From Theionarchaea archaeon (GTDB lineage: Archaea; Methanobacteriota_B; Thermococci; Methanofastidiosales; SZ-28-30), in assembly GCA_018992685.1 (NCBI GenBank), contig JACVGT010000025.1, positions 1 through 64,000 on the forward strand: a stretch of DNA of 64,000 bases. The letters are read 5' to 3'. Shown here piece after piece: positions 46,512 to 64,000 of this stretch. A model generated the notes under the pieces. That model searched no databases. It saw only the letters and a program-made list of their open reading frames with translations, and was not told the DNA's origin. The translations under genes were made by a program, and so were the position numbers. Numbering within the stretch: position 1 is the stretch's first letter; every line of letters begins with the position of its first letter.

Positions 46512-47555
46512 TTACAATTGAAAACCTAGGATATTAGTTGGGAAAAGGAAGTTTGCTACATAAACATTTAGAGCATAACCACATGTACATCCGGGGCATT
46601 TTTTCACGAACATCTGCTGAGCCCTTCTCTTGTATTCATCGGACCGAAGGATATTTCTCAATTTGGTTTTTCTGAGATTACCTATCGGATTCAAAACCCA
46701 ACATCCCGAATAAACTTCTCCTCTTGAGCTGAGATATACTGATAGGTAACCATGGGCGCACAGAAATTCTTTAGGAGTACCTTTACAATATGCTCTGACA
46801 TATTCCAGGGCATTGCTGTCTTCGCTGATGATCCAAGGAGTTTCTTTTTTCATCGTTTCAATATGGTCTAATGTCTTATCAACAACTTGTTTATTATCGA
46901 TTGACAATGCTGACATCTCAACTCCCCGAAATTCATATGGATTCTTATCGAGTAAATTTATTCTAAATGATATACCCAGATCCCTGCACACCTCTAGGAG
47001 CATAGGAACCTCTTCAATACTGTACTTGGTTAATGTTGTTGAAATCCTTACATTTATTTTCTTTTTAAGAGTTTTCGCTAACAGGGTTATGGCTTTAATG
47101 CCCAACAGTGAAGCATCATAGGCATACGGAATTCCTCTAATGATGTTGTTTGTTTTTCCTATACCATCAACTGAAATTGATATGTCTGTAATGCCGCTTT
47201 TAACAAGTTCTTCAGCTCTATTACATAGCAAGAGACCATTAGTTTGGATTGCTACCTCTTTGAATCCAAGATTCCGTGCTTCCTTTATCAAAAGGGTGGC
47301 GTCTTCCCTCAAAAGAGGTTCACCACCAGTAAATTTAATAACTCGTATCCCCACATCTCTCATTTGATTCATGATATTCTGAAGTTCCTCAGTACTCAAT
47401 TCATTTGTGTGTTTTGTTTTCCATGTATTGCATGTGATGCAATGACCATTACAATTTTCAGTGATTTTTATTTTTGCAGCATACGGGTGAATGGGAATTA
47501 CTCCTAGCAGTTTATTGAAGTATTGGCTAAAGTAGAGCAATGACCTAACAACCAT
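46512..47555 (-). CDS. Radical SAM protein with SPASM/twitch domain
   Basis: CNGHCITC motif, FTGGEPLL, QTNG, SVDG; C-terminal CAHG...SGC...IGNL...CPGC. Confidence 0.92.
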   Translation of the reverse strand: MVVRSLLYFSQYFNKLLGVIPIHPYAAKIKITENCNGHCITCNTWKTKHTNELSTEELQNIMNQMRDVGIRVIKFTGGEPLLREDATLLIKEARNLGFKEVAIQTNGLLLCNRAEELVKSGITDISISVDGIGKTNNIIRGIPYAYDASLLGIKAITLLAKTLKKKINVRISTTLTKYSIEEVPMLLEVCRDLGISFRINLLDKNPYEFRGVEMSALSIDNKQVVDKTLDHIETMKKETPWIISEDSNALEYVRAYCKGTPKEFLCAHGYLSVYLSSRGEVYSGCWVLNPIGNLRKTKLRNILRSDEYKRRAQQMFVKKCPGCTCGYALNVYVANFLFPTNILGFQL

Positions 47556-49002: not shown

Positions 49003-49213
49003 ATCAAACCTCCTTGGATAACTGAATTCAAAAGTTTTAACAATTCCAAGTATCGTGTAAGCCTTGGCAGCAATCAAATTACTGAAAGTGAGAATGAAAA
49101 AAGGAAAAGTTGTTAGGGATCAAAACAAGTTAACTCAAGCCGAGGGAGCGCTTCTGAAGTTGGTGTTAAGAGCCCACCAAAACATTTATAAAGGGCAGGT
49201 GGTTCCAGGGTGT

Positions 49214-50425
49214 ATGTTGTATGACTTTGACCGCCGCCTTGAAAGCATGAAAAAAAAGATAAGGGGGCTTGAGGAAAAAGAGAATGCTGAGATCATCTTG
49301 AAGTTTCTCAATCAGCTCTTTGCAGAAGGGTTGTCAAAGCCCAGGGTCTTGAAGTATGCCACTCATCTCAAAGTGATATCAGAGAAAATGGGCAAGAACT
49401 TCTCAGAGATAGAAAAGGATGATCTAATTTGGTATTTATCAGAGTTGGAACAATCTGACTATTCTGCTCAAACAAAAAGAGACTACAAGGTGGTTCTCAA
49501 ACGATTCTTTCCATACATTGGGAAAGGGGAGCTGGTATCGGATATAAAGACGACTTTAAGAGGAAATAAGAAGACACTGCCAGAGGAGCTACTAACAAAG
49601 AAGGATGTGGAAACATTGATTGAGGCTGCAAAACATCCTCGAGATAAGGCTCTCATCGGCATTCTGTATGAGGGAGGATTGAGGATAGGAGAACTGACAA
49701 GTCTCAAGATTAAGAATGTGCAATTTGATGAACATGGTGCTGTCTTAAAGGTTCGGGGTAAAACGGGGGAACGACGGGTAAGAGTTGTGTTGTTTGCTTC
49801 TTCACTGGCAAAATGGATGGAAATGCATCCTGAGGGCGACAACAAGGAAGCACCCCTCTGGGTTAATCTGTCGAATAATTACAGGAAAAAGGGAATAACA
49901 TATGAAGGGTTATACCAGAAGCTCAAGAGGATTGCCAAGAAGGCAGGGATAAAGAAGAAGTTGAATTTTCACAATTTCAGGCATTCCAGGGCCACCCACC
50001 TGGCTCAGCAATTGACAGAGGCCCAGATGAACGTGTACTTTGGGTGGGTCCAGGGAAGTGATATGCCAGCTACATATGTGCACTTGAGTGGGAGAGATGT
50101 TGATGACAGGATCCTAGAGATCCATGGAGTGAAACCCAAAGACAACGACAAGGATGACCAGTTAAAACCTCAGGTGTGCCCCCGGTGCAAGTACATCAAT
50201 TCACCTGTTAGCCGATATTGTGGAAGGTGTGGGACAGTCCTTGATGAGAAGGAACGATTGAGAATGGAGATGGAGAGCAGGGGATTAACGAAGGGCTTCC
50301 CAGATATAGGTGTTGAGGATGCTGGGGTATTGGAGGGGATGAAGAAGTTCAGAGATGTGCTGGAATTGCTTGAGAAGCATCCGGATCTGTTCAAGAAAAT
50401 GAGAACACTGCTGGAAGGGACGTGA
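49214..50425 (+). CDS. Tyrosine recombinase/integrase (archaeal type with C-terminal zinc ribbon)
   Basis: LYEGGLRIGE, RGKTGER, HNFRHSRAT, FGWVQGSDMPATYVHL, CPRC...CGRCG; TTTATAAA at 49185 supports the ATG at 49214. Confidence 0.93.
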   Translation: MLYDFDRRLESMKKKIRGLEEKENAEIILKFLNQLFAEGLSKPRVLKYATHLKVISEKMGKNFSEIEKDDLIWYLSELEQSDYSAQTKRDYKVVLKRFFPYIGKGELVSDIKTTLRGNKKTLPEELLTKKDVETLIEAAKHPRDKALIGILYEGGLRIGELTSLKIKNVQFDEHGAVLKVRGKTGERRVRVVLFASSLAKWMEMHPEGDNKEAPLWVNLSNNYRKKGITYEGLYQKLKRIAKKAGIKKKLNFHNFRHSRATHLAQQLTEAQMNVYFGWVQGSDMPATYVHLSGRDVDDRILEIHGVKPKDNDKDDQLKPQVCPRCKYINSPVSRYCGRCGTVLDEKERLRMEMESRGLTKGFPDIGVEDAGVLEGMKKFRDVLELLEKHPDLFKKMRTLLEGT

Positions 50426-50503: not shown

Positions 50504-52786
50504 ATGAGCAGCCTTTATATACTTAGATTTCAATCTCCAAATATGTTATATAGTGCCATACTCTTCGCGGTGTTTTTATTCTTCGTCTCTATATGCGTTA
50601 GATTGTTCATGAAGGTTAAAAAGTGGAAGTTGATTTTAATTGATATCATTTGTTTCGCAATAATCGCTTCTACTACTGCTTACTACATTTTCCCAAAAGA
50701 CACAAAGTCTGAGGATATCTACGTTTTCCTGAATGTATATTTCGATGACCGCGGGGAAAACGACTATGATGAGAATGGAAAGGTACAACAAGTTTTCCTT
50801 CTTTATCAAGAAGACCACACAAGGGTCCTGATGTATTGCTGTTGCGTTCATCACCCCCAAGACATCGATTTTCGGCTGCTTCTTGAATATTGGAATCCCT
50901 ATTCACTAAGCATGGATTTCCCGCAGAACGAAACTCTCAAATTTTTTATAATCCCTTTAGATAATTATAGTGACCGAGACCTTCTTTTTCGATCTGAAGA
51001 TGATCTAGAAAAGGAATTTCCTGATTTCCAGATGACCCGCGATCCTAATAAAGAAACGGGATATTTTAGTATGTCATCTGTTGAAGATAAGATCATGGAA
51101 AGAAATTTCTGGATTTGCTTTGATGTTGAGCCATTAGAATTTGGAACGCAGGCATATGTCCATGTCAAATTTAATAGTTGGTTGCCTGCTGACTTAATTT
51201 CACTGTGGGTCGATGAAAAACATGATATAGTTCTCAGTTTTCCTCCGGGAAAACCATCCACTGACCATGTGAACTTTGATGTCTATGGAAAATTTCAGGA
51301 ATGTACGATCAAAGTCAGAGAGACTAAACGATTCAATGAAGCTTGGTTCGTAGCAGTATTCGCAACTTTGATTACTATGACATCCTATTATCCCAGTATT
51401 AATAGAGAGAACGGCCAAACTGGAGAAATGCATGAAAGAGGACACCTAAATCCCGAAATATCCCCTTTCTTGATTTCTCTTATCTCTGCAATATTTGTGT
51501 TCATTATTTCTTCAAGAGATAATTTTGTCGATAATAGCGACAATACTCGATATATGCTTAGTGCTCTTGTGCAAAGCGAAGCAGCAATCATTGCTATTTT
51601 TGTGACGATAGGGCTCGTCGGGGTGCAACTGGCAGGAGTTTATTCTCCTGCATTAGCGAAAGCTTTCAGAACAAGCAATGGGCTCAAAGGACTCGTTTTT
51701 CTGTATATTTTTTCGATATCCTTAGGGCTTTATATTCTTGGAGCGCATGATTCAACTCCGGCAATCTACATCAGACTTTGTTTTTCTCTTGGAGTTTTCT
51801 GTTTTGTAGCTTTTGCTCTTTATGCATTTGACGCGATTGAAATGACCGAACCTACCCGATTCATCGAGAAACAGTGCCAAAAGATTAATGGATGTAATAT
51901 TTTCCAGAAAGATGATCCTATTCAATCCATTTTCGATATTATAGGAGCGCTGATACGGAAATATGATGAAAGAACGGCAATATACGGATTAGACAAAATG
52001 GGAGAAGGAATTGAACTTATGTTGAAAAATGAGAAGTTCGAGAAAAAGGAGGAAATCGAAGTCTCAAATAAGATCCGCTTTGCATTCAAGGATATCGGTA
52101 TATTGGCATTTCATCAAGGAAATGAGAATGTGGTACTCGAGGTTTTAGAACGTCTCGAGAGTATAGGCAATATAGCAATAGAAAATGATCTTGAAATAGT
52201 GGCTCGGAAATCTGCAGAATCTCTTGGGTCGATTGGAGAGACCATTGTCACCAAGCAGTTCTTAGAAGAGAGAATGGATGACAGCCTAGTAGCCTACAAT
52301 ATCCAGGAAACTGAGAAAATTGCTTTGTCTGCTTTGGAGAAGGGATACAAAGCAGCAACTGTTGCGACGAGAAAGCTTGGAATAATTGGAGAAATTGCTA
52401 TCAAGAGAGGATTTGGGAATGTAACACATGATATAATCGAGTCATTGGAAGAAATCACGAAGAGTGCTGGAAAAAGGAAAGGGAAGACAAATAAGAGTGG
52501 GATAGTGATATCAAATATTGAGCTGGATAGAACCATAGGAGGTGCAGTCGAATACATTAATAGTATTGCGAAGAATGCTGTTGAATTAAAATACGAGGAT
52601 ATAAGCGAGCACGCAATTCACTCTCTTGAGGCAGTAATTGACTGCGTTCTCATGATTGATCATAGCTACACAGCCAAACAAGTTAGAGAACAAATAGAGA
52701 AAACAAAGCACGCAGTACAAAAGGAGAAAAACAGAAGTTTATCATTAGACTTGGAAGAGATCCTTAGAAAGCTTGATTCTGCTTGA
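50504..52786 (+). CDS. Large membrane protein with a DUF2254-like TM domain and C-terminal helical repeats
   Basis: RYMLSALVQSEAAIIAIFVT.GLVGVQL...YSP; DPIQSIFDII; repeated L..IG..AI units. Confidence 0.75.
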   Translation: MSSLYILRFQSPNMLYSAILFAVFLFFVSICVRLFMKVKKWKLILIDIICFAIIASTTAYYIFPKDTKSEDIYVFLNVYFDDRGENDYDENGKVQQVFLLYQEDHTRVLMYCCCVHHPQDIDFRLLLEYWNPYSLSMDFPQNETLKFFIIPLDNYSDRDLLFRSEDDLEKEFPDFQMTRDPNKETGYFSMSSVEDKIMERNFWICFDVEPLEFGTQAYVHVKFNSWLPADLISLWVDEKHDIVLSFPPGKPSTDHVNFDVYGKFQECTIKVRETKRFNEAWFVAVFATLITMTSYYPSINRENGQTGEMHERGHLNPEISPFLISLISAIFVFIISSRDNFVDNSDNTRYMLSALVQSEAAIIAIFVTIGLVGVQLAGVYSPALAKAFRTSNGLKGLVFLYIFSISLGLYILGAHDSTPAIYIRLCFSLGVFCFVAFALYAFDAIEMTEPTRFIEKQCQKINGCNIFQKDDPIQSIFDIIGALIRKYDERTAIYGLDKMGEGIELMLKNEKFEKKEEIEVSNKIRFAFKDIGILAFHQGNENVVLEVLERLESIGNIAIENDLEIVARKSAESLGSIGETIVTKQFLEERMDDSLVAYNIQETEKIALSALEKGYKAATVATRKLGIIGEIAIKRGFGNVTHDIIESLEEITKSAGKRKGKTNKSGIVISNIELDRTIGGAVEYINSIAKNAVELKYEDISEHAIHSLEAVIDCVLMIDHSYTAKQVREQIEKTKHAVQKEKNRSLSLDLEEILRKLDSA

Positions 52787-52980: not shown

Positions 52981-53013
52981 AAAAATAAAAAAGGTGGCAG
53001 CATATGCTGCCTG
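52981..53013 (-). terminator. Hairpin plus T-tract terminator (duplicated at 54988-55020)
   Basis: GGCAGCATATGCTGCC palindrome followed on the minus strand by a T-rich tract, just after the stop. Confidence 0.6.
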
Positions 53014-53018
53014 CAAAA

Positions 53019-53348
53019 TCACTGCTCAGGATCTGCCCCTAGTTCCATTATGGCCAGAGCCATACTCCTGACCACAATGTCACCGCTCATTGCGATCTTC
53101 TGGAGCCACTCCTTGTTCTCCTCGTCTGCCTCGTCAGTATCATCACTGCATTCCCACAAAGATTCATGAGCCCGGACATCCTTGACCAGACGCCTGTACA
53201 ACTGTGCTTCAGAGAGGATTTTCCTGAATTGTTTCACCAGCCAGATAAAGGTCTGATTCTTATTCCCTGTGCTGAAGTGGCTCATGATCTTGCGGAACTC
53301 CTTTTCCGTGTCTTTATCCACCACAAAACTGAGACGTTGTGTACGCAT
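53019..53348 (-). CDS. Small protein with ribbon-helix-helix-like N-terminus (intact copy)
   Basis: QRLSFVVDKDTEKEFRKIMSHF...NKNQTFIWLV strand-helix-helix pattern; acidic linker. Confidence 0.7.
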   Translation of the reverse strand: MRTQRLSFVVDKDTEKEFRKIMSHFSTGNKNQTFIWLVKQFRKILSEAQLYRRLVKDVRAHESLWECSDDTDEADEENKEWLQKIAMSGDIVVRSMALAIMELGADPEQ

Positions 53349-53523
53349 GGTATCCCATCCATAATTGAATATTGCAGCCATTGGTCTCACATGACGGCAC
53401 CGATGGAGTCAATGAGCATGTGCCAGAAGACACCGTTCTGGACGAAGATGGCAAACTGGACAATGAAGGGAGCATCAGGGTTTAAATTCAATTTCTCAGG
53501 ATTATTGCGTGATTGTCCTATTG

Positions 53524-53904
53524 TTATGATTCCCAAAATGGGCAATACTGCCTGCTGATTGGCTTTCTGTGCAGTTTTCGCTTGATTTGTATTTTATATT
53601 TTTTCTTTTCAGTCATTCTTTCTTTCATTTGTCCTAAGGATATTAGAATAATTATAACTCCACCTACTGCAAGCGAACAATAGAAAAAGTTTATATCTGA
53701 CCCTGGAAGAGGTTTCCTAAAAATGCCGTAATAAGAAACTGAAAAACCTGCATAAATTCCACATATACAAAGAAAGAAATAATACATATCCAGAACTATC
53801 TCGTTAATTGATATCAATTTTCCCTTTGTAAAGAGAATTATGAATTTGATAAACACCAATACTAAGAGAAGGATTATTAGAATCAATGTGGGATTATGAG
53901 GCAT
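53524..53904 (-). CDS. AT-rich three-TM membrane protein
   Basis: Three hydrophobic helices and a basic tail; overlaps the upstream ORF. Confidence 0.65.
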   Translation of the reverse strand: MPHNPTLILIILLLVLVFIKFIILFTKGKLISINEIVLDMYYFFLCICGIYAGFSVSYYGIFRKPLPGSDINFFYCSLAVGGVIIILISLGQMKERMTEKKKYKIQIKRKLHRKPISRQYCPFWES

Positions 53905-54325
53905 TTGATTGTTCCCTCCTTTCGATGATGTGGAAATTGGAATTATTAACCAGATTTGAATATCTGAGTAATATCTTCAAATTTTCTAGTAGGATATTAT
54001 CTACATACTCTAGTTCAAGCTGTATTCCCATCCCAAACTCATTATACCATTTTTTATACTCTAGAAAAGCTCCTTTGATCTTTTCACACGTTCTATCTAG
54101 ACTCTCTTCATCAAACCTTATCCTGGTTTGCTCATTCAAACAGTATTCGACATCCTTTATCAAATCTTCAATCAGAGGATACACTCTATTGATATGAGAT
54201 CCAATCTTCTGCCTCATTTCAATTTTTCTTTGATGCCTAAATCTGATCTCTTCAACGGAGATTTCGATTATCAGATTTCGTAGAGCTGATAATAGTACTT
54301 TTAAGACTTCGATTACAGCATTCAT
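53894..54325 (-). CDS. AT-rich helical hypothetical protein
   Basis: 143-aa ORF, ATGA-coupled to 54322-54573. Confidence 0.65.
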   Translation of the reverse strand: MNAVIEVLKVLLSALRNLIIEISVEEIRFRHQRKIEMRQKIGSHINRVYPLIEDLIKDVEYCLNEQTRIRFDEESLDRTCEKIKGAFLEYKKWYNEFGMGIQLELEYVDNILLENLKILLRYSNLVNNSNFHIIERREQSNAS

Positions 54326-54573
54326 TTCAGACCACCTAATGCCTTTCTCTCTATTAGGAAATTGAGAACGCGAGAATAATCTCTGGGGAGTTTCATTTTA
54401 GAATATCCTATGAGATGATAATCTATTGAAATTTCCCGAGTTTTGAAGGTTCTTGTCTTGCTTTCTATTAGAAATCTTATGATTGACAGTATATCCCCTT
54501 CATCATTATTATCGTCCTCCCTCTTCATCAAATATGTTCTCTTCAGAGGTTTTGCATTAAATCCCGGATCCAT
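54322..54573 (-). CDS. AT-rich small hypothetical protein, possible winged helix
   Basis: 83 aa; first gene of a coupled three-gene cassette; fold call tentative. Confidence 0.55.
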   Translation of the reverse strand: MDPGFNAKPLKRTYLMKREDDNNDEGDILSIIRFLIESKTRTFKTREISIDYHLIGYSKMKLPRDYSRVLNFLIERKALGGLK

Positions 54574-54987
54574 GAGTAGAAGTTGGTTCAGCTGCTTTTA
54601 AGCTTTTGCCGAAAGGATTATAGACTGTCAAAAATAGATATAAAAGCATATAATGGTATATAATTGCGTAGAGTGTTACATAACTAATTAGACAAATATG
54701 AGTAACATGAGTTTTTCCTAGTCCTGGTTCACTTCCACATTAATTGACATATAGCATTTTAAATTCCTTGAATGGGAAGAAGATTTAAGAATATGGCATA
54801 CAGAAACTCCATTGCTCCAGTACACGAACCTGAGAATTTAGTATTACTTCAATTGGTTATTCACCTTCCAAGTAATCCAAAAAATGGAACACCAAGCATT
54901 TTCATCATGAAATCGTGTTTATCAAGTTCGAATATTCGAGAATTTTATTGAACATACCATGTTCTCAAAAGAAGATATTCTAAATCA

Positions 54988-55522
54988 AAAAATAAAAAAG
55001 GTGGCAGCATATGCTGCCTGCAAAATCACTGCTCAGGATCTGCCCCTAGTTCCATTATGGCCAGAGCCATACTCCTGACCACAATGTCACCGCTCATTGC
55101 GATCTTCTGGAGCCACTCCTTGTTCTCCTCGTATCCTGGTCATCTGACTCTGCCTCTTCAGTGTCATCAGTGCATTCCCACAGAGCTTCATGGGCCTGGA
55201 CATCCTTGACCAGACGCCTGTACAACTGTGCTTCAGAGAGGATTCTCCTGAATTGTTTTACCAGCCAGATAAAGGTCTGATTCTTGTTTCCTGTGCTGAA
55301 GTGGCTCATGATCTTGCGGAACTCCTTTTCCGTGTCTTTGTCCACCACAAAACTGAGACGTTGTGTGCGCATGGTATCCCATCCATGAGTTGTATGTTGT
55401 AATCATTGGTCTCACATGACGGCACCGATGGAGTCAATGAGCATGTGCCAGAAGACACCGTTCTGGACGAAGATTGCGAACTGGACAATGAAAGGCGCAT
55501 CAGGGTTCAAGTTCAATTTCTC
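54988..55522 (+). repeat. ~520-bp direct repeat, copy B
   Basis: See copy A at 52981-53497. Confidence 0.93.
55026..55372 (-). pseudogene. RHH-like protein, copy B, frameshifted by 1 nt near 55132
   Basis: 347 nt versus 330 nt in copy A. The 17-nt insertion shifts the frame; one extra base restores DDEENKEWLQK...ADPEQ*. Confidence 0.75.
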
Positions 55523-55834
55523 GTAGACCACGGGGATAATGACGAAAGCAACGACAGCAGAGAGGATCACCTCAGGGATGCTGACGGCTGGGTTTAGAGT
55601 TCCAGATCTGAACTGCATGATGGCTGAACTGAGTAGGACACCCACAAAGGCTCCAAGATACATGAGGACCTGGCGCAGCACAGTGAGGTAAGGGAGATCA
55701 TCAAGTTCAGGTGCATCCAGTTCTTCAGTCTCCTGGTATGCAGCTGCCATGGTGCCATTATGCAGAGAGCCACCGTTGTTATTCTCCCATGCTTTTCTCA
55801 CCCGTTCATTGAGATCAAAGTACTGCTTCATCAT
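55412..55834 (-). CDS. Three-TM membrane protein
   Basis: Hydrophobic helices ending FIVQFAIFVQNGVFW; ATGA-coupled to the upstream gene. Confidence 0.8.
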   Translation of the reverse strand: MMKQYFDLNERVRKAWENNNGGSLHNGTMAAAYQETEELDAPELDDLPYLTVLRQVLMYLGAFVGVLLSSAIMQFRSGTLNPAVSIPEVILSAVVAFVIIPVVYEKLNLNPDAPFIVQFAIFVQNGVFWHMLIDSIGAVM

Positions 55835-56649
55835 AGAGATTCCTCCACAGTAATCTCTGACTCCTGAATTAAACCGTCCTCATTGAGATCCTTCCAGCGC
55901 AGTAACACCATTCGGCAGTCTTCATAGTCTTTCCAGGTATCAGGGTTGGCCACAAAGATGGATCCAGCTAGTGTCCCCTGCCACCCGTAGCCCCAGACCA
56001 TCAGGATGTTCCGCCCTCTGTATTCTCTTAAGTAGACAATGCAGATGTCTTCTGCAGGGTATTTCTCCAGATCCAGGTAGATGGACTTTGACTCAGCATT
56101 GATCTTGAAGGACTCGTTGATGTTGTACTCATAGGTTATTCTCAGTAGCTTTCCCAGTTCAACAGCCAATTCGTTTACTGCAGGTCCTCCCACAACAATG
56201 AGGTTCCCCGTGTCATGTTCCTCGTCAGTCAGCAGCATGTCAGTTCGACTTTCCGGGTTCTGCTGGCACCCACCCCAAGCCAATGCATACGAGATATTGG
56301 CTGCACCCAGGACATCGGGAGTTTCAGCCTTTTCTCCCACGATCAGGTAAGAATTCTTGCGGAAGAGTGTGGCCAGCGTGTGAAAGGTTTCTCTCAAGTG
56401 GTCAGTATTGTCAACATCGATAATGTCAGGTTCGTAATCAGTCTCAGGTTCATCCTCTTCAGCACTGTAGACTGCAGGTGCCGGAATAGGTGATTGCTGT
56501 AACTCAGAAAACAAGGTAGCAGGATCTACGGTCACCGTGATGTGACCAGGTACACCAGGATCTCCCACAGCTACCAACACAACAACTGAATTGACCCCGG
56601 ACATGACCACTACAAGAACCAGGACTAGAGAAATCATTCTGTCATCCAT
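55831..56649 (-). CDS. Secreted S-layer-like domain protein
   Basis: N-terminal signal/TM; DVLGAANI, NLIVVGGPAVNELA and VWGYGWQGTLAG resemble archaeal S-layer C-terminal domains; GGGGTGA SD. Confidence 0.75.
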   Translation of the reverse strand: MDDRMISLVLVLVVVMSGVNSVVVLVAVGDPGVPGHITVTVDPATLFSELQQSPIPAPAVYSAEEDEPETDYEPDIIDVDNTDHLRETFHTLATLFRKNSYLIVGEKAETPDVLGAANISYALAWGGCQQNPESRTDMLLTDEEHDTGNLIVVGGPAVNELAVELGKLLRITYEYNINESFKINAESKSIYLDLEKYPAEDICIVYLREYRGRNILMVWGYGWQGTLAGSIFVANPDTWKDYEDCRMVLLRWKDLNEDGLIQESEITVEESL

Positions 56650-56669
56650 GTACTATCACCCCAGAAGAA

Positions 56670-57326
56670 TTAAGGGACTAGCCCCGAATCGCGCACCAGT
56701 CCGGAGGCATCTCTGACAAGGCCTGAAGCATCTCGTACGAGACCAGAAGCCTGGCCTGCCAGTAGTATAACGTCTTCAGTCTCTGCGTAGGCTACCTGGT
56801 TCTCCAGTTGTCCCGCTCTCTTTTCGATCTCATCTGCTCTCTTGATTTGCGATTCAATTTTCTCTGTAGAATTACCTCTCACCAGTCCTGAGGCATTGCG
56901 TACCAGACTGGATGCATCCCTCACGAGACCGGAGGCATCTTTTACCAGACTGGATACGTCCTGTACCAATGCTGAGGGATCTGCAGTCTCTGCCAACGTA
57001 ATAACACGTCTCACATACCGTGAAAATTGGACAGTCCCTTTTGATAGATTCTGGACAGTCTCAGTCAATCTCCGGTAAGAACAAGCAGTCTCATCATCTG
57101 TGACCAGTCTGGATGAATCTCTCACGAGACCTGAGGCATCCCTCACTAATCCAGAGGCATCCCGAACCAATCCAGAGGCATTCCTTACAAGCCCAGATGC
57201 GGAAGGTCTTACCTTTCCGCAGTCCAGAGCGGCAGTACTTTCACGTACTGCTTCATCGAGCTCCAGGATAGCATTATCTGTATCCTGGACAGTCCTAATT
57301 TCAATTACGACTATATCCGTTCGCAT
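56670..57326 (-). CDS. DASGLVR-heptad repeat protein (218 aa), function unknown
   Basis: About 14 [D/N]ASGLVR-type units in three blocks with synonymously diverged codons; GGAAGGT SD. Confidence 0.85.
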   Translation of the reverse strand: MRTDIVVIEIRTVQDTDNAILELDEAVRESTAALDCGKVRPSASGLVRNASGLVRDASGLVRDASGLVRDSSRLVTDDETACSYRRLTETVQNLSKGTVQFSRYVRRVITLAETADPSALVQDVSSLVKDASGLVRDASSLVRNASGLVRGNSTEKIESQIKRADEIEKRAGQLENQVAYAETEDVILLAGQASGLVRDASGLVRDASGLVRDSGLVP

Positions 57327-57824
57327 TTTAATACCTTCCTTTTTTTTCTCAAAGGAAAGTCCTTCACCCTCTAGATTTTCGGAATGGTTATCGTTCCGTC
57401 AAAAAATATACCCTATATAAATGTTTCGGCCATTTAAAAGCTTTAAAACAGAAATGCAATCTGTCAGTGTAACGATTTCAGAATGATGACGGAAGAAGTG
57501 GACAGTATTCGATAAGAAAAATAGCAAGAATACCCACTTCTACAGAGATGGTAAGATTTGCTTCACTTTCGAGAATTTCTTGAATTTTTCGCAAAAGTAG
57601 AATTTTCTTCTTTTTCTGCAGGTTGCTCTGTCCAGAATTCCTGTGAAACAGCATCATCAAGTACTCTTGAAGTGATTTGAGTACCAATATCTTTATATGA
57701 AAAGAAGAAAACAATATACACCCGATTCAGAAGAGATTTAAAATGGAATTTTCCCCTATTTTCTTCTACATTATTGCCACATTTTTTAGAGTTGCACAAT
57801 CGTACAATTTCTATGGTTATTCAT

Positions 57825-59462
57825 CTAAAAAAAGTCGTTCAAACTCAATTGTTTCTCTTTATGTATTCTGAGGTCCCGCCTTGTAGGAATAGCTGATGGA
57901 ATACATAAGAAGTAAATCTCTCTTCTTCTTTTTGCATTTCCAGTGTATACTAACCAATTCATTAACGTTCTAGTATTTTCTGGAATTGAAGAATCACCAT
58001 ACACTCTCAGACCCGCTCGTTTTCTTTCTTCTTGAATCAGATGCTGTATTTTCTTAGGATTCAAACCTTTGTCCTCAGAGAGATTATCATAAATAGTTCT
58101 GTATAACTTCACCGTTTTCAGTGCCTGTTCATGAAAGATCTTTTTCTTTGTGAATTCATCGGAATCTGCGAATATGCTCCCCAAGTCGGTAATCCTCACA
58201 TAACTCATAAAAGGAGATTCTGTGAATCCTAACGTATCCGAACATTTCCGTTCATGGTGAATATTTTCTTTATGTAGAGTGTTCTTTAGAGTATCAATTG
58301 TCGTCAATCCCCCATGATAAGCTACTGCTTCAACAAATCTGACAATTGGGAGCGCGTCTGCATTAGGTACATAAGGCATCTTCGTTGGAGAGACACCTTC
58401 AGTTTCTTTAGGTTTCACTCTCAATCCAAAATCGAATGCTGTTTCTTTTTCAGCAAAATCTTTGTAAATATCCGGACCGATTCTTCTACTTCTGAATTTC
58501 AGGGGAAATCCATATCTTGACGTTCCTGTAGAATCATCCTTCTTCAGGACATTAATTTGAGAAAGTTTCTCAAGAGCGTCTTTTATCCATTCACTATTTA
58601 GATCATTTCCTGAAATTGTCAAAGGTTTCAAACTCCTTATTCTTTCCATTAGTTCTTCACGAGATAAATACAAGAATTCTTCTTTCCTATATTCTCCTCT
58701 TTCAACTAAGGACTCCAAACAGGGAATGATCATTTCCAGTATAAATTTCATTGTATATTCTACAGCTGGTGGTTTTTGTGAAACAAAATACGTTTTCTTA
58801 CCAAGTAGTAATATTCTCTCTGAATAAAAGTTTCGCTGTTGGCTAATAAGAGGACAAAGAATCTCACCCCTTACATGATTGATGTAAAGACCATCCTTGT
58901 TCCGTTTATCTTTAGTACAAAAATACCATAGGCTGAAATCATGAGGAGAATTTTTGAGAAAATCTAACTGCTGATAGTTTCTTTCTAGGAATTCAATTAC
59001 ACTGCCATAATCGTGTTCACTCACAATCAGCCAGACTTCGTGTCTATCGAATTCTTTCATTTCCTGGAAATATTTTTTCAAGTCACTTAGTCTATTTAGC
59101 ATATTTGCTTCGAAATCAGCAGAATTTCTGTTTGGTAATGACGACTTTATCTCTATGAGAATCCCCTTTCTTCTTGAACCGTATGCAAAAGTAAGATCCG
59201 GGGTTTTTGGATCTTCATCTTCATTCATAGGATTGATTTTAATACTTTCCCCTAAGAAAGAAATTTCATCATCCATAGAACTAAGTTTAGGTATTTCTTC
59301 TGCTAACATTTCTGAAATCATAACACAGTACTCATAATCTGTACATTTCTTTCTTATTTCATTTTCTCTTTTTTTTATTACTTTTTGTAACTCTCCCTCA
59401 TCAAGTTCATTTTCTCTTCCTTTTTGATCCTCATCATCATTTGTTTTCATTAAATCACTCAT
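57825..59462 (-). CDS. PD-(D/E)xK nuclease-like protein with probable C-terminal winged-helix region
   Basis: TPDLTF...ILIEIKSS motif; AT-rich; overlaps the upstream gene by 8 nt. Confidence 0.7.
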   Translation of the reverse strand: MSDLMKTNDDEDQKGRENELDEGELQKVIKKRENEIRKKCTDYEYCVMISEMLAEEIPKLSSMDDEISFLGESIKINPMNEDEDPKTPDLTFAYGSRRKGILIEIKSSLPNRNSADFEANMLNRLSDLKKYFQEMKEFDRHEVWLIVSEHDYGSVIEFLERNYQQLDFLKNSPHDFSLWYFCTKDKRNKDGLYINHVRGEILCPLISQQRNFYSERILLLGKKTYFVSQKPPAVEYTMKFILEMIIPCLESLVERGEYRKEEFLYLSREELMERIRSLKPLTISGNDLNSEWIKDALEKLSQINVLKKDDSTGTSRYGFPLKFRSRRIGPDIYKDFAEKETAFDFGLRVKPKETEGVSPTKMPYVPNADALPIVRFVEAVAYHGGLTTIDTLKNTLHKENIHHERKCSDTLGFTESPFMSYVRITDLGSIFADSDEFTKKKIFHEQALKTVKLYRTIYDNLSEDKGLNPKKIQHLIQEERKRAGLRVYGDSSIPENTRTLMNWLVYTGNAKRRREIYFLCIPSAIPTRRDLRIHKEKQLSLNDFF

Positions 59463-60573
59463 CGAGAAGAGATATTTCGGCTACTCCTATTGCCATTTGG
59501 ATTTCTTCAACGATGTCAGAAAGAGATGAAGGGGAACATCTTGTTTGAGGGACAATTGCGATTTTGTTGTTTAAAGCATTGATAGAAAAAGTTGAGTAGT
59601 CTTTGAAATCAACCACATTAGCTGAAAAATATGGATTTGAAGACTGATTGATGGTATAAGATAAGAATTTCATTTTCTCAAGAACGAAGGTCAATCTCTC
59701 TAACTGTGACTCATTTAAATCATTCTTGAATTTCAATACAATGGGAGATAATTCAATTTGCTTTTTTTGATTGTTGTAACGTCTTTCTCTGTTAAGATAA
59801 GACTTGTTTGTCTTTGCAAATGTCTCGATACAATTCCTCAAAACGTCGGCCCAGAAATAATCCAGCGCTCCGGAATACAGAGTAAATGATTTGTCTTTTC
59901 TCTTATATCTAAATCTCATAATTGTCTCTCCTCCCTTCCCAGAACAATCTATGATTATCCTATTAATGACTTTCCCGTAAAGCTCATTTTCTATTCCTTT
60001 TCTGAATTCAGAATAATTCTTATCGGCAGATTTGCCCCTCAATTGAACTGATGAATATTGCGATTTATTTTTCAACGGGTCGTAAATTACACTTTGAACT
60101 TCAGTAACATAGATTTCGCCATAAATTTCTTTGAGTCTGTCAATCATCTCAATAATACCTTTGTTGTCCAAATGAACTCTATACAAATAAGGATATGAAT
60201 ATTCTATCCATTTCAGAAGAGTTACAGACAAGGAATTCTTCAGGATTTCATCACTTAGAAACATATAAAAGTTTTTCTTGATTCTTACTACCAATGAAAT
60301 AGATGCTACTTCCTTTTCGGTGTTCACGACTATGAGTGAATAAATGTCATTCGAAATTTTGCTAGACGCTATTCTAAATGTTTTTCTATTTGAAATATTC
60401 TGCCAGTTTTCTATGTCGTATTTCGAAAAGCAGAAAAAGAATTTCAATCCCGTTCTGGTATTGTTGACAAAGTTTTCATTGAAAAACGATTTCAATTCAT
60501 CAAAATTAGCTATATTCTCAATTTCATTCTGGAATTCTCTTATCAAGGAGCCTGGTGTTGCAGGTACTAACAT
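59455..60573 (-). CDS. AT-rich hypothetical protein, partner of the nuclease
   Basis: 372 aa; GAGGTGA SD; C-terminal NPYFSANVVDFKD...IAIVPQ; no recognised catalytic motif. Confidence 0.8.
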   Translation of the reverse strand: MLVPATPGSLIREFQNEIENIANFDELKSFFNENFVNNTRTGLKFFFCFSKYDIENWQNISNRKTFRIASSKISNDIYSLIVVNTEKEVASISLVVRIKKNFYMFLSDEILKNSLSVTLLKWIEYSYPYLYRVHLDNKGIIEMIDRLKEIYGEIYVTEVQSVIYDPLKNKSQYSSVQLRGKSADKNYSEFRKGIENELYGKVINRIIIDCSGKGGETIMRFRYKRKDKSFTLYSGALDYFWADVLRNCIETFAKTNKSYLNRERRYNNQKKQIELSPIVLKFKNDLNESQLERLTFVLEKMKFLSYTINQSSNPYFSANVVDFKDYSTFSINALNNKIAIVPQTRCSPSSLSDIVEEIQMAIGVAEISLLDE

Positions 60574-61902: not shown

Positions 61903-62494
61903 GAGCTATAGTTGAGGCAGCGAATATTTAAGTCTTCTAGTTGTTCCTCCTCTAGTTGTCTACAAGGCTGCTATCCTCCTCCGAATAATGAGGACCTTTT
62001 CGAGGAAGACCGCGTGCATCCATTTCCTCTTACCACAGGATTATTGTTCCCTCTACCATATTTCACGTTCTTGGTTTCATATTTTTTCAAGTTCTTCAAG
62101 GTGCTCTTTTAGTCATTTTTTCCATGAATATATCCCGAAAATATGAACGGTCATAAATGCCCATAATTACACTGTTTTCAACTCTTATTCTCCACTTTGT
62201 GAAGGTCATTCTTTTCCGGTAACAGCCATGTGGATTTTTGTCATGAAACTATGGACAGAATTCTTGAATACTAGTGTGACGTTCGGCGGATAATTATTTT
62301 CTTGAATACAAATGCTCAATATATTCCGAGTACGTGAGATTTCTTTCCAAATTTAGAACGTAGACATTCAACCGTAAACCTTATAAATTGCTCAACGAAT
62401 TGGAGTTGGCCTGTGCATGTATTCCATGGGGGATGCTTTGCATAAGAACTGGGAGACATACGTGCGAAAAGAACAAATGAAGGAGATGACGAAG

Positions 62495-64000
62495 ATGAGA
62501 GACAAAATCTTAATATTGGGGTTAAGTGCTGCTCTTCTTATGAGTTTATTTTGTTATGTTCAGGAGATAGCAGCAGGGTATGATGGTTTGAGTGAGAGAA
62601 TTCCTGTTGTGGGAGATGATGTTGCAGGCTCTCTCAGTAATGTGCCACCTGTGGTGGAAGTTGTACCTGATGTATCCAGTGGGAAGGCACCCTTGCGCGT
62701 GCAATTTGAGGGAGATGTGTATGATGAGGACGGGGAGATTACTAGTCTGGAATGGGACTTTGAAGGAGACGGGGCCTTTGAGGTTACGAGTGATCTGAAG
62801 AGTATTGAGAGACCTCAGAAGTTGCAGGCGGCACGGGAAGGATTACAGAAGGAGCATGTATATGATAATCCAGGAATCTACCATGCGGTCGTCAGGGTGA
62901 CGGATGATAAAGAGGAGAGTACTACAGCATCTGTGACCATACAGGTGTATTCGGATAGACCATGGCTGGATATTACGCCATCCAACAAGGATGGATTTTT
63001 GTATCAGGCACAGGCTGGATATGAGGCCTTCTTTGGGGAAAATGTGGGTAAAGAGATAAAATTTGAGTTGAATAACGCATATATTACGTACCGAATGGTG
63101 AATCAGTCTTTTGGTGCTGTCAATACCGCAAAGGGTGAACCTGAAGGGAACAGAATCTGGTACAGGAATGTCTTCCCCGGAGTTGATATACGATATACGG
63201 TGCATGAGGATTTGTTACTGGAAGAATTTGTGGTATACCAGCCCGTGGGTATAACGGTGATTGAGCAGGAATTTGTAACGCATGGAGTGGACTATAAGAT
63301 GGAGGAAGATGGGTCCATTGGGTTCTACAATGGGGAAGATCTGGTATTTTCTATCCCGAAACCGGTGATGTATGAGTTTAATAACCCGGAAAGGAAGTGT
63401 TACGGGTTACATTATGAAGTTGTGGAGAAAGGTAATTTGTACATACTGAGGAAGGTTATTGATAATTTAGAATGGTTAAAGTCTGCCAAATATCCCGTGG
63501 TCATTGATTCGTCCACGCAGGGCGAGATAGCTGATCCCTGGGAACAGCAGGGGTTAACACCGTACGGGCAGTACTTCCAGAACATGAATGAATATGTTGA
63601 TCCCTTGACTGGGCATCTTAATATAAGACAGACAGATTATTCTCTATCTGGGAGAGGGCTGGATTTATCCATATCCAGGGTCTACTCCACGGTGGTGGCT
63701 TACAAGGAAGATGAAGAGGAGAGTGGCTCTGGGGAGTATGTACCCATTGCTACCTATAAAGAAGCACCCACGGATCTGGGATATGGATGGTCTCTGGATT
63801 TTCCCTGGCTGGAATTTAACGAGGATGACCAGGAACCTGGCCACTACTTACATTTACCCAAAGGGGTCCAGATCAAGACCAATTTTGTTGATGGAGTATG
63901 GATTGATGAGACACACCACTTTGTTATGTACATTAATGGAGATTATTCCTATACCAAATACAGAGATGATGGTGTGAGAGAAGACTATGATAGTCAGGGG
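62495..64000 (+). CDS. Secreted PKD-domain/RHS(YD)-type large protein, N-terminal part (runs off the window; absent from the ORF track)
   Basis: 502 open codons starting MRDKILILGLSAALL. Contains PKD (EWDFEGDG...HVYDNPGIY..VRVTDD), YPVVID, and the RHS-associated EYVDPLTGHL...GRGLDLSISRVYS...LGYGWSLD; AGGAG SD. Confidence 0.88.
   Translation, partial: MRDKILILGLSAALLMSLFCYVQEIAAGYDGLSERIPVVGDDVAGSLSNVPPVVEVVPDVSSGKAPLRVQFEGDVYDEDGEITSLEWDFEGDGAFEVTSDLKSIERPQKLQAAREGLQKEHVYDNPGIYHAVVRVTDDKEESTTASVTIQVYSDRPWLDITPSNKDGFLYQAQAGYEAFFGENVGKEIKFELNNAYITYRMVNQSFGAVNTAKGEPEGNRIWYRNVFPGVDIRYTVHEDLLLEEFVVYQPVGITVIEQEFVTHGVDYKMEEDGSIGFYNGEDLVFSIPKPVMYEFNNPERKCYGLHYEVVEKGNLYILRKVIDNLEWLKSAKYPVVIDSSTQGEIADPWEQQGLTPYGQYFQNMNEYVDPLTGHLNIRQTDYSLSGRGLDLSISRVYSTVVAYKEDEEESGSGEYVPIATYKEAPTDLGYGWSLDFPWLEFNEDDQEPGHYLHLPKGVQIKTNFVDGVWIDETHHFVMYINGDYSYTKYRDDGVREDYDSQG

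Follow-up and report, generated by a model that had tools for sequence, protein, structure and literature searches.

The window analysed here is a stretch of 64,000 nucleotides (nt; positions 1 to 64,000 of the forward strand) of contig JACVGT010000025.1 from Theionarchaea archaeon (assembly GCA_018992685.1), which is contig C27 of a host genome of 3.03 Mb, 45 contigs and 46.7% GC. It holds a small cassette on the minus strand headed by gene A (57326..56670), an open reading frame (ORF) for a protein of 218 amino acids (aa) built around repeats of the heptad DASGLVR. Behind it, all in the same orientation, follow gene B (56649..55831), encoding 272 aa with an S-layer-like C-terminal domain; gene C (55834..55412), encoding a membrane protein of 140 aa; and gene D (55372..55094), a frameshifted ORF of 92 aa for a small basic/acidic protein that is ribbon-helix-helix (RHH)-like by pattern only. 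The spacer between A and B measures 20 nt and contains a ribosome-binding-like site (GGGGTGAT), B and C overlap in an ATGA, and a hairpin search places a GC-rich, terminator-like hairpin (GGCAGCATATGCTGCC) followed by a T-run on the minus strand at 55018-55003. An earlier note on this DNA, made without any database search, had described, with no mention of the strand, a tightly packed, co-oriented gene set with an ATGA overlap and a terminator, and all of these are indeed seen.

In the repeat of A, nine perfect ASGLVR units stand at residues 43, 50, 57, 64, 131, 145, 193, 200 and 207, and about five further, degenerate units bring the total to 14 heptads, arranged in three blocks (residues 41-75, 117-151 and 190-218), in agreement with the roughly 14 copies in three blocks first reported. 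The DNA of units that encode the same peptide is on average just 72% identical (range 56-89%), with three to five codons in use per residue, and DNA repeat finders detect a weak 21-nt periodicity in the gene (67-84%). Compared with its paralog on contig C8, A has a ratio of non-synonymous to synonymous substitution (dN/dS) of 0.074/0.515 (0.14) overall and 0.054/0.575 within the repeat blocks. From these low values it follows that A is a real gene under purifying selection, which also holds the peptide repeat; together with the low DNA identity of the units, they support the earlier claim that the codons are synonymously scrambled and that the peptide rather than the DNA is kept.

The heptad repeat persists in homologs down to 40% identity, a point on which the earlier note had made its case depend. 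An alignment of 32 A sequences shows no variation in blocks 1 and 3 at Ser (position b), Gly (c), Arg (f) and Asp (g); position a drifts between Ala, Val, Thr and Ile, d between Leu, Ile and Met, and e between Val and Ala. In most homologs block 2 has degenerated but retains the helical pattern, and the spacer helices are likewise conserved. The number of heptads differs between homologs, the three blocks being of similar length within one protein. In metagenome contigs from two sequencing runs, an in-frame skip of 42 nt from 57123 to 57166 corresponds to two heptads of block 1; the repeat number is thus polymorphic in nature. Antisense to A run two open frames on the plus strand, 57100-57420 (106 aa) and 56842-57078 (78 aa), 'SLTRPEASLTNPEA...'; such frames are by-products of the codon pattern of the repeat and gave false ORF clusters in other loci.

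What kind of protein does this repeat build? AlphaFold2, run on the 32-sequence alignment, models A as a single-chain six-helix bundle (predicted local distance difference test, pLDDT, 89.9; predicted template modelling score, pTM, 0.87) with helices at residues 3-35, 41-72, 78-114, 117-146, 154-179 and 183-215, and we consider a six-helix fold highly probable. Since repeat blocks 1-3 coincide with helices 2, 4 and 6, A would consist of three hairpins, each made of a spacer helix and a heptad helix. Small or apolar residues occupy five positions of the heptad, leaving Arg (f) and Asp (g) as the only polar ones among the seven, and the spacer helices read as carrying a single a/d stripe. Ala (a), Leu (d) and Val (e) would form the hydrophobic face of each heptad helix, and the small Ser (b) and Gly (c) would let other helices pack closely against it. 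We infer from this distribution, and from the invariance of b, c, f and g in blocks 1 and 3, that the repeat helices are most likely buried inside and the spacer helices exposed outside: an inner parallel three-helix core with the spacer helices wrapped around it, or in other words a one-chain 'trimer of hairpins'. A profile search of PDB sequences with A returned as its best matches single-chain coiled-coil barrels of six helices that are products of design (E 4.7e-7 and 8.7e-6), and structural alignment of the model with VIA-align ranked a designed building block first (Z 15.1), then gp41-5, a five-helix bundle made from HIV gp41 in a single chain. Profile matches, model and alignment agree on the small-residue coiled-coil protein that had been suspected from the repeat, and the conclusion that A is a folded helical-bundle protein, with the heptads as its structural helices, is well supported. 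Its N-terminus is not hydrophobic, nor does any hydrophobic segment occur further along, so A lacks a signal peptide, as had also been claimed.

Several known systems can be compared with this predicted architecture. In gp41-5 (PDB 3o3x), which represents the class I viral fusion six-helix bundles, outer antiparallel helices lie in the grooves of an inner parallel three-helix heptad core, and helices 2, 4 and 6 of A align on its inner N-helices (Z 13.6, within the aligner's chance range of Z 13-14 for helical bundles; root-mean-square deviation 2.7 Å over 175 residues, 44-218, at 9% sequence identity). All six helices of A come from one natural chain; and since a Z of 13-14 can arise without kinship, the match is a likeness of shape, not membership. 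Nor does A have a viral envelope context: there is no fusion peptide and no hydrophobic segment, no relative in viral contigs (0 in IMG/VR, where none of 25 pattern matches was confirmed) and no viral fold match to the model when Foldseek is run against BFVD at E<=0.001. The designed sc-apCC-6 (9r1o/8qad), the filaments 8uao/8ubg and 8ga6 share with A near-perfect small-residue heptads, six helices of ~30 residues and short loops. These bundles are artificial, however; the match reflects heptad composition and not descent, and A alternates repeat with non-repeat helices. Chemoreceptor signalling domains and syntaxin/SNARE helices have Ala/Ser/Gly-rich heptads as well, but the repeat of A is far more regular and is unaccompanied by HAMP, ligand-binding or SNARE zero-layer features; the corresponding matches stay weak (Pfam Syntaxin_2, the best Pfam match of A, 20.5 bits against a cut-off of 26.5; Syntaxin-12 in the PDB, E 0.36; methyl-accepting chemotaxis protein chains, E 0.06); one source annotates an A homolog as 'methyl-accepting chemotaxis protein'. 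Identities as a PspA/ESCRT-III, phasin-like or gas-vesicle protein were dropped because they are absent from the Pfam, PDB-profile and structure lists, an absence that is not proof.

Further searches likewise placed A in no described family, as the earlier note had anticipated from the repeat. The NCBIfam models CGLAU_01105 (29.9 against a cut-off of 45) and MBP-1 (18.8 against 80) stay below threshold, both of these weak matches falling on block 1, and PHROG tail proteins at E 1e-4 represent weak coiled-coil noise. The ESM Atlas offered no usable match for A and, for C, just unnamed clusters below 0.9. The strings DASGLVR, ASGLVRD, SGLVRDA and GLVRDAS were not found in the literature searched; searches on Theionarchaea, RHS and archaeal polymorphic toxins returned nothing on the A family; and a term search of PMC8416519, on the VARTIG module of Thermococcales, found neither Theionarchaea nor Methanofastidiosa, heptads or coiled coils. 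Within these searches the A family, its near-perfect natural heptads in a one-chain six-helix layout and its pairing with the C family are undescribed, whereas the heptad helical bundle is a known type of fold.

As far as genomes are concerned, the family is narrowly distributed. The host genome has three A genes, on C27 (the window), C8 (87% identity) and C32 (51% identity), and the copy on C8 belongs to a second full cassette of 85% nt identity. A word-indexed search with A found 48 proteins at E<=0.001, mostly of ~217 aa and metagenomic, and in an exhaustive profile search, 109 of 1.84 billion representatives scored at E<=0.001, of which 43 reach 1e-10 and 12 reach 1e-30; the nearest database proteins are sourced as 'Candidatus Methanofastidiosia archaeon' and 'Theionarchaea archaeon'. 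Many of the weak profile hits fall on eukaryotic 7-residue tandem repeats (such as RSGYIRY, DSSGINR and HAAGLVC), which were treated as convergent, not homologous. A soil metagenome contig (L066) encodes an unrelated membrane protein with a short RVRDASGLVRDASGRVRDASGRVRDAS run before a transmembrane segment, and a similar short repeat may occur in other lineages. Among species genomes, the A profile was matched in 3 of the 133 in the phylum, all of them in the genus of the window (another count gives 3 of 41). A scan of 185,579 species genomes added two contigs of a Theionarchaea metagenome-assembled genome (MAG) and one contig labelled Kariarchaeota (L010, 92% identity), a label that probably reflects mis-binning or transfer of the cassette, as the cassette part alone matches the host genome. 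Four sediment and sludge metagenome runs contain hundreds of short contigs that cover the cassette at 85-100% identity, which points to many cassette variants in those communities; the depths recorded for these runs are sums, not copy numbers.

Which of its neighbours does A need? The protein encoded by gene C, which has 88 homologs, carries the invariant motif M-x-YFDLNER-x-RKAW at its N-terminus; an acidic linker of variable sequence leads from there to three hydrophobic helices with the near-invariant stretch PVVYEKLNLNP..PFIVQF.IFVQNGVFWH. For synteny, the window proteins were compared with 68 loci, of which L001-L004, L006, L007 and L009 (three host-genome loci and four duplicates) were left out, giving a base of 61 loci with an A match; 29 of these are informative in having at least 1.5 kb downstream of A, and B or C was counted if it lay on the same strand within 4.5 kb of A. 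Downstream of A, C is present in 14/29, B in 11/29, either of the two in 17/29 and D in 2/29. The 12 informative loci lacking B and C comprise five of the lone-paralog type described below or from a contig of the same MAG (L012, L021, L053, L054 and L061, with L053 and L054 near-duplicates), six with cut or weak partial A matches (L028, L044, L057, L058, L048 and L049, the last two near-duplicates) and L031. Where little downstream DNA was available (32 loci), the start of B or C is still visible in 14. In eight loci (L014, L017, L018, L019, L020, L047, L064 and L065) C comes after A and no B stands directly between the two, although one of them (L019) has a B-like fragment ~3.4 kb further downstream. 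The four-gene operon proposed at first therefore stands in part: A with C is its conserved core, whereas B is frequent but dispensable and D rare.

The link between A and C is tightest in natural fusions, of which we found three: P0041 (305 aa), P0042 (306 aa) and P0047 (185 aa). These proteins open with the N-terminal motif of C and close with its membrane domain, and the linker between holds three A-like hairpins or one. In the AlphaFold2 model of P0041 a weak linker joins six helices to three terminal ones at 219-243, 254-275 and 283-304 (pLDDT 82.6, pTM 0.70). Together with the synteny, the fusions tie A to a membrane component, as had been supposed; they indicate that A and C probably form one functional unit, with A on the side of the C N-terminus, and suggest that the two proteins would bind each other physically. 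Predictions of the A-C complex scored 0.00 in two runs without controls, give no verdict either way and were left unused. A further protein, P0138 (733 aa), joins a complete A to DUF7363 and a CHAT (caspase-like) protease domain. Two other apparent joins were set aside as rearrangement junctions rather than functional fusions: at L028 (2887-5910) A is broken after block 2 and continues into a 5'-truncated type I restriction R subunit (hsdR), and in P0043 block 1 of A runs into a 5'-truncated Endo_dU. The repeat gene seems to be a frequent site of rearrangement.

The B protein consists of an N-terminal hydrophobic segment, an acidic linker and the S-layer-like C-terminal domain. Its label as S-layer-like, taken over from the earlier note, depends on a short match to Pfam S_layer_C (PF05124) of 30.1 bits for the whole protein against a cut-off of 23.9, in which no stretch passes alone: residues 137-173, around the motif NLIVVGGPAVNELA, correspond to profile positions 100-135 of 177, so that 36/177 positions match, and TIGR01564 is matched weakly, at 17 bits. 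An archaeal S-layer subunit moreover has 500 aa or more, against the 272 aa of B. Four further secreted proteins of the host genome (683, 217, 572 and 820 aa) share the C-terminal 185 aa of B as their own C-terminus, a recurrence that suits a surface-attachment module, and comparison with the paralog on C8 gives a dN/dS of 0.068/0.705. For D, neither the 92-aa form nor a 123-aa form found elsewhere in the window matches a Pfam family at E<=0.01, D is without a PHROG, NCBIfam or PADLOC match, and nothing is found among PDB sequences at E<0.6; its putative ribbon-helix-helix (CopG/Arc/MetJ) fold is accordingly a reading of the strand-helix-helix pattern. In the operon copy and the C8 copy, the last 34 codons of D (KEWLQKIAMSGDIVV...) are out of frame, a break that could represent decay, a recoding site or an assembly issue. 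Homologs of D outside the host genome occur at L039 and L060 only.

The genes belong to a discrete unit of 2.6 kb that spans ~54988-57625. Upstream of A, it includes a non-coding part on the minus strand (57327..57625) that likely carries promoter and leader; a TTTATATA box ~90 nt before the ATG is a candidate promoter element, and the GC content changes near 57500. The 5' boundary is shared with L010, a MAG contig that is 89% identical at the nt level over window positions 57625 down to 56463 and unrelated beyond, the rest of it having 37% GC. That an otherwise unrelated contig shares this boundary indicates that the boundary is movable. A remnant second copy of the cassette 3' end lies on the minus strand at 52981..53497 (517 bp), revealed by direct repeats and tblastn; it comprises the last 36 codons of C, an intact D of 123 aa (53390..53019), in which the 34 codons are in frame, and the same terminator (53011-52996), and matches 54988-55522 through direct repeats D2-D4 at 92-100% identity. 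Remnant and full cassette are separated by a 1.5-kb insert of low GC (33%; 53498..54987) with three minus-strand ORFs (126, 143 and 83 aa) of no known family in Pfam, PHROG, NCBIfam or PADLOC; of the four metagenome runs with coverage of the cassette, two leave this insert uncovered. At the ends of the cassette no tRNA, Rfam family, inverted repeat or attachment site (att)-like repeat was found.

The surroundings are rich in mobile and accessory genes. At 49064-50425 lies a tyrosine integrase, with a zinc ribbon at its C-terminus, that is convergent to the window cassette; a 68% paralog of it is convergent to the C8 cassette, the genes between differing from those in the window. After the integrase comes a 760-aa protein of no family (50504-52786). 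On the other side, on the minus strand like the cassette, lies an overlapping gene pair of low GC (33-35%), 57825-59462 (545 aa) and 59455-60573 (372 aa); the former protein has a C-terminal AAA-associated domain (PF09821), the latter no family, and an adjacent paralogous pair on contig C1 (27-33% identity) hints that the two could be an island system of their own, so far unknown. Beyond them are a fragment of a DDE transposase (PF13737; 60882-61364) and, at 62417-64000, the first part of a large RHS-type protein (PKD + DUF6531) whose remainder lies outside the window. Farther away, a radical SAM/SPASM protein (46512-47555) beside small ORFs of no family could mark a peptide-maturation locus.

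Clustering the ORFs of the 61 loci and the three host-genome regions gave three settings. The window-like setting opens with a divergent SNase-like gene, whose cluster is present in 16 loci; A and B come next, followed in 6 loci by a metallophosphoesterase, and after these C, small ORFs and rarely D. In the RHS-linked setting (at least 11 loci), an upstream, co-directional RHS-repeat protein (BNR + RHS, 1200-1700 aa) and one variable gene precede A, C and four small ORFs. In the third setting (C32, L011, L053 and L054) a lone A paralog, unaccompanied by B or C, follows an HExxH membrane protein; L021 shares just this adjacent HExxH protein with the setting, its other neighbours being in no cluster. 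Individual window-like loci have neighbours that match known or candidate defence genes: PbeA (E 2e-231) and an LA2681-like HEPN protein at L039, PDC-S39 (E 4.9e-38) at L038, a bSEFIR/TIR protein (E 1.5e-26) at L042 and a DpdA-like protein (E 1.4e-10) at L010.

Taken as a whole, these observations are best explained, with a probability that we put at about 0.4, by an accessory conflict or defence module in which A is a cytoplasmic coiled-coil head and C the membrane part. A would be the soluble component, presumably located in the cytoplasm, that holds or senses, and C the effector or anchor in the membrane, the two being one polypeptide in some relatives; B would add an exported, surface-attached (S-layer-like) and optional third part, and D a small putative regulator that is occasionally present. 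Such an architecture would recall RexA/RexB of phage lambda, a two-component abortive infection system made of a soluble sensor and a small membrane effector. The analogy would be one of architecture rather than of sequence or fold, in that mobile or defence-rich DNA encodes a soluble protein of ~220 aa together with a neighbouring membrane protein of ~140 aa and several helices; PADLOC has no match for A-D. The conflict or defence role itself is tentative and less likely than not; it is suggested by the recurrence of a discrete unit in variable regions rich in integrases, RHS and defence genes, that is, by movable boundaries, integrases, defence and RHS neighbours and the CHAT fusion. As for mechanism, identical core heptads could allow the bundle to open, slip register or re-pair with other copies when triggered, and a triggered A would then release C or assemble it into a membrane-damaging form; the same head may also serve a different effector, of which the CHAT-protease fusion P0138 would be an example. 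In this complete form, as an undescribed archaeal membrane-acting defence or conflict system of A, C and optionally B with a natural one-chain 'trimer of hairpins' as its sensor or latch, we regard the proposal as rather unlikely.

A number of results weigh against this module. PADLOC (PADLOC-DB 2.0) recognises no family in A, B, C or D, and for A, C and D no tool returned a functional family, with no Pfam, NCBIfam, PHROG or PADLOC model at threshold. On the structural side, Foldseek of the A model against the PDB found nothing at E<=0.001 (best TM-score 0.56, to the designed helical filament 8uao), and it is the aligner's own note that helical bundles reach the Z of the gp41-5 alignment by chance. 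The GC content of the cassette (49-50%) is near the genome average, and it is the flanks (33-38%) that deviate instead. Among the RNA data searched, no run contains the stretch. Residence in defence islands is weak evidence, because many unrelated accessory genes gather there, and the RHS-linked loci, almost all of which come from one assembly (JADDYB01), are not independent. Finally, the lone paralog sits in a conserved, housekeeping-like block (EamA, Fe-ADH, UPF0179, DUF2085 and an arginase-family gene), a context more in keeping with a cellular structural role than with defence.

Such a structural role would make the genes a cell-envelope scaffold, in which A in the cytoplasm, C in the membrane and B outside form a link to the S-layer and the heptad bundle serves as a spacer or docking platform. 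The S_layer_C match of the B C-terminal domain and its recurrence on four secreted proteins (217-820 aa) would fit this, as would the native-like GC of the cassette and the lone paralog, which has a conserved context outside the islands and stands right behind a membrane protein with an HExxH domain; on the other hand, there are loci with A and C but no B, presence in 3 of 133 phylum genomes from one genus would be odd for a core part of the envelope, and the cassette is multi-copy, with movable boundaries, beside integrases and defence genes. On balance a scaffold is improbable, though it has the best standing among the alternatives. A further alternative takes the genes as cargo of a provirus or an integrative mobile element, for instance an exclusion or structural module that travels with the integrase and small DNA-binding proteins. 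In its favour, integrases are convergent to both genomic copies and one occurs at L020 too, C is followed in many loci by small ORFs of RHH-like or zinc-ribbon type, the 2.6-kb unit has changing flanks and a partial tandem remnant, and variant contigs number hundreds in the four metagenome runs. Against it, relatives in IMG/VR are nil, the PHROG matches are noise, no viral fold matches at E<=0.001 and neither a tRNA nor att-like repeats were found; the genes between integrase and cassette also differ in the two copies. We give it a somewhat smaller chance than the scaffold.

The genes could also serve polymorphic toxin loci of the RHS type, as an accessory or immunity module. At least 11 loci have an RHS-repeat protein, one variable gene, A, C and small ORFs in co-directional order, and in the window an RHS-type protein starts at 62417. 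On the other hand, nearly all of those loci come from JADDYB01, a variable gene stands between the RHS gene and A, the A-B-C loci have no RHS gene upstream, and in the window the RHS-type gene is divergent and 5 kb off; A and C are, besides, conserved (40-60% identity) and not polymorphic like immunity genes, and we consider this role quite unlikely. Equally low is our estimate for a homo-oligomeric filament or sheet whose heptads pair between molecules. Perfect repeats would permit register shifts and domain swapping, designed helical filaments have the top Foldseek TM-scores (8uao, 0.56), and a monomer core leaves the invariant Arg and Asp unexplained, but AlphaFold2 closes A, and likewise the fused form P0041, into one compact bundle (pTM 0.87 for A), and the three blocks are of similar length within one protein. 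The earlier note had also entertained a polyprotein precursor that releases DASGLVR peptides through cleavage after Arg, an idea for which the identical units ending in Arg and the HExxH membrane protein next to the lone paralog might speak. It is hard to reconcile with units that are predicted to be continuous helices of a bundle at a pLDDT near 90, with the missing signal peptide, with an operon that has no conserved protease or transporter, with a block 2 that is degenerate in most homologs, with a variable repeat number, with drift at a, d and e while Ser, Gly, Arg and Asp stay fixed, with conserved spacer helices and with fusions in which the repeats form a domain of a membrane protein or a protease; we therefore reject the precursor as extremely improbable.

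What would A and its partner mean for their host and for protein biology at large? If the fold prediction holds, A matches designed coiled-coil bundles in regularity although it is a product of nature, with nine identical heptads selected at the peptide level; with three heptads per core layer coming from one chain, it would provide a clean natural model for the packing of small-residue heptads of Ala, Ser, Gly, Leu and Val. The host is an uncultured sediment archaeon in which most accessory genes are 'dark matter', and the pairing of A with C, their occasional fusion and their residence among defence genes, integrases and RHS loci point to a membrane module that has so far escaped description and that is limited to a narrow lineage without cultured members. 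To our knowledge, few archaeal defence systems are known beyond CRISPR and restriction, and a new one that acts at the membrane would be useful, if true. Should A and C turn out to be an envelope scaffold instead, they would still constitute a new family with a testable partner.

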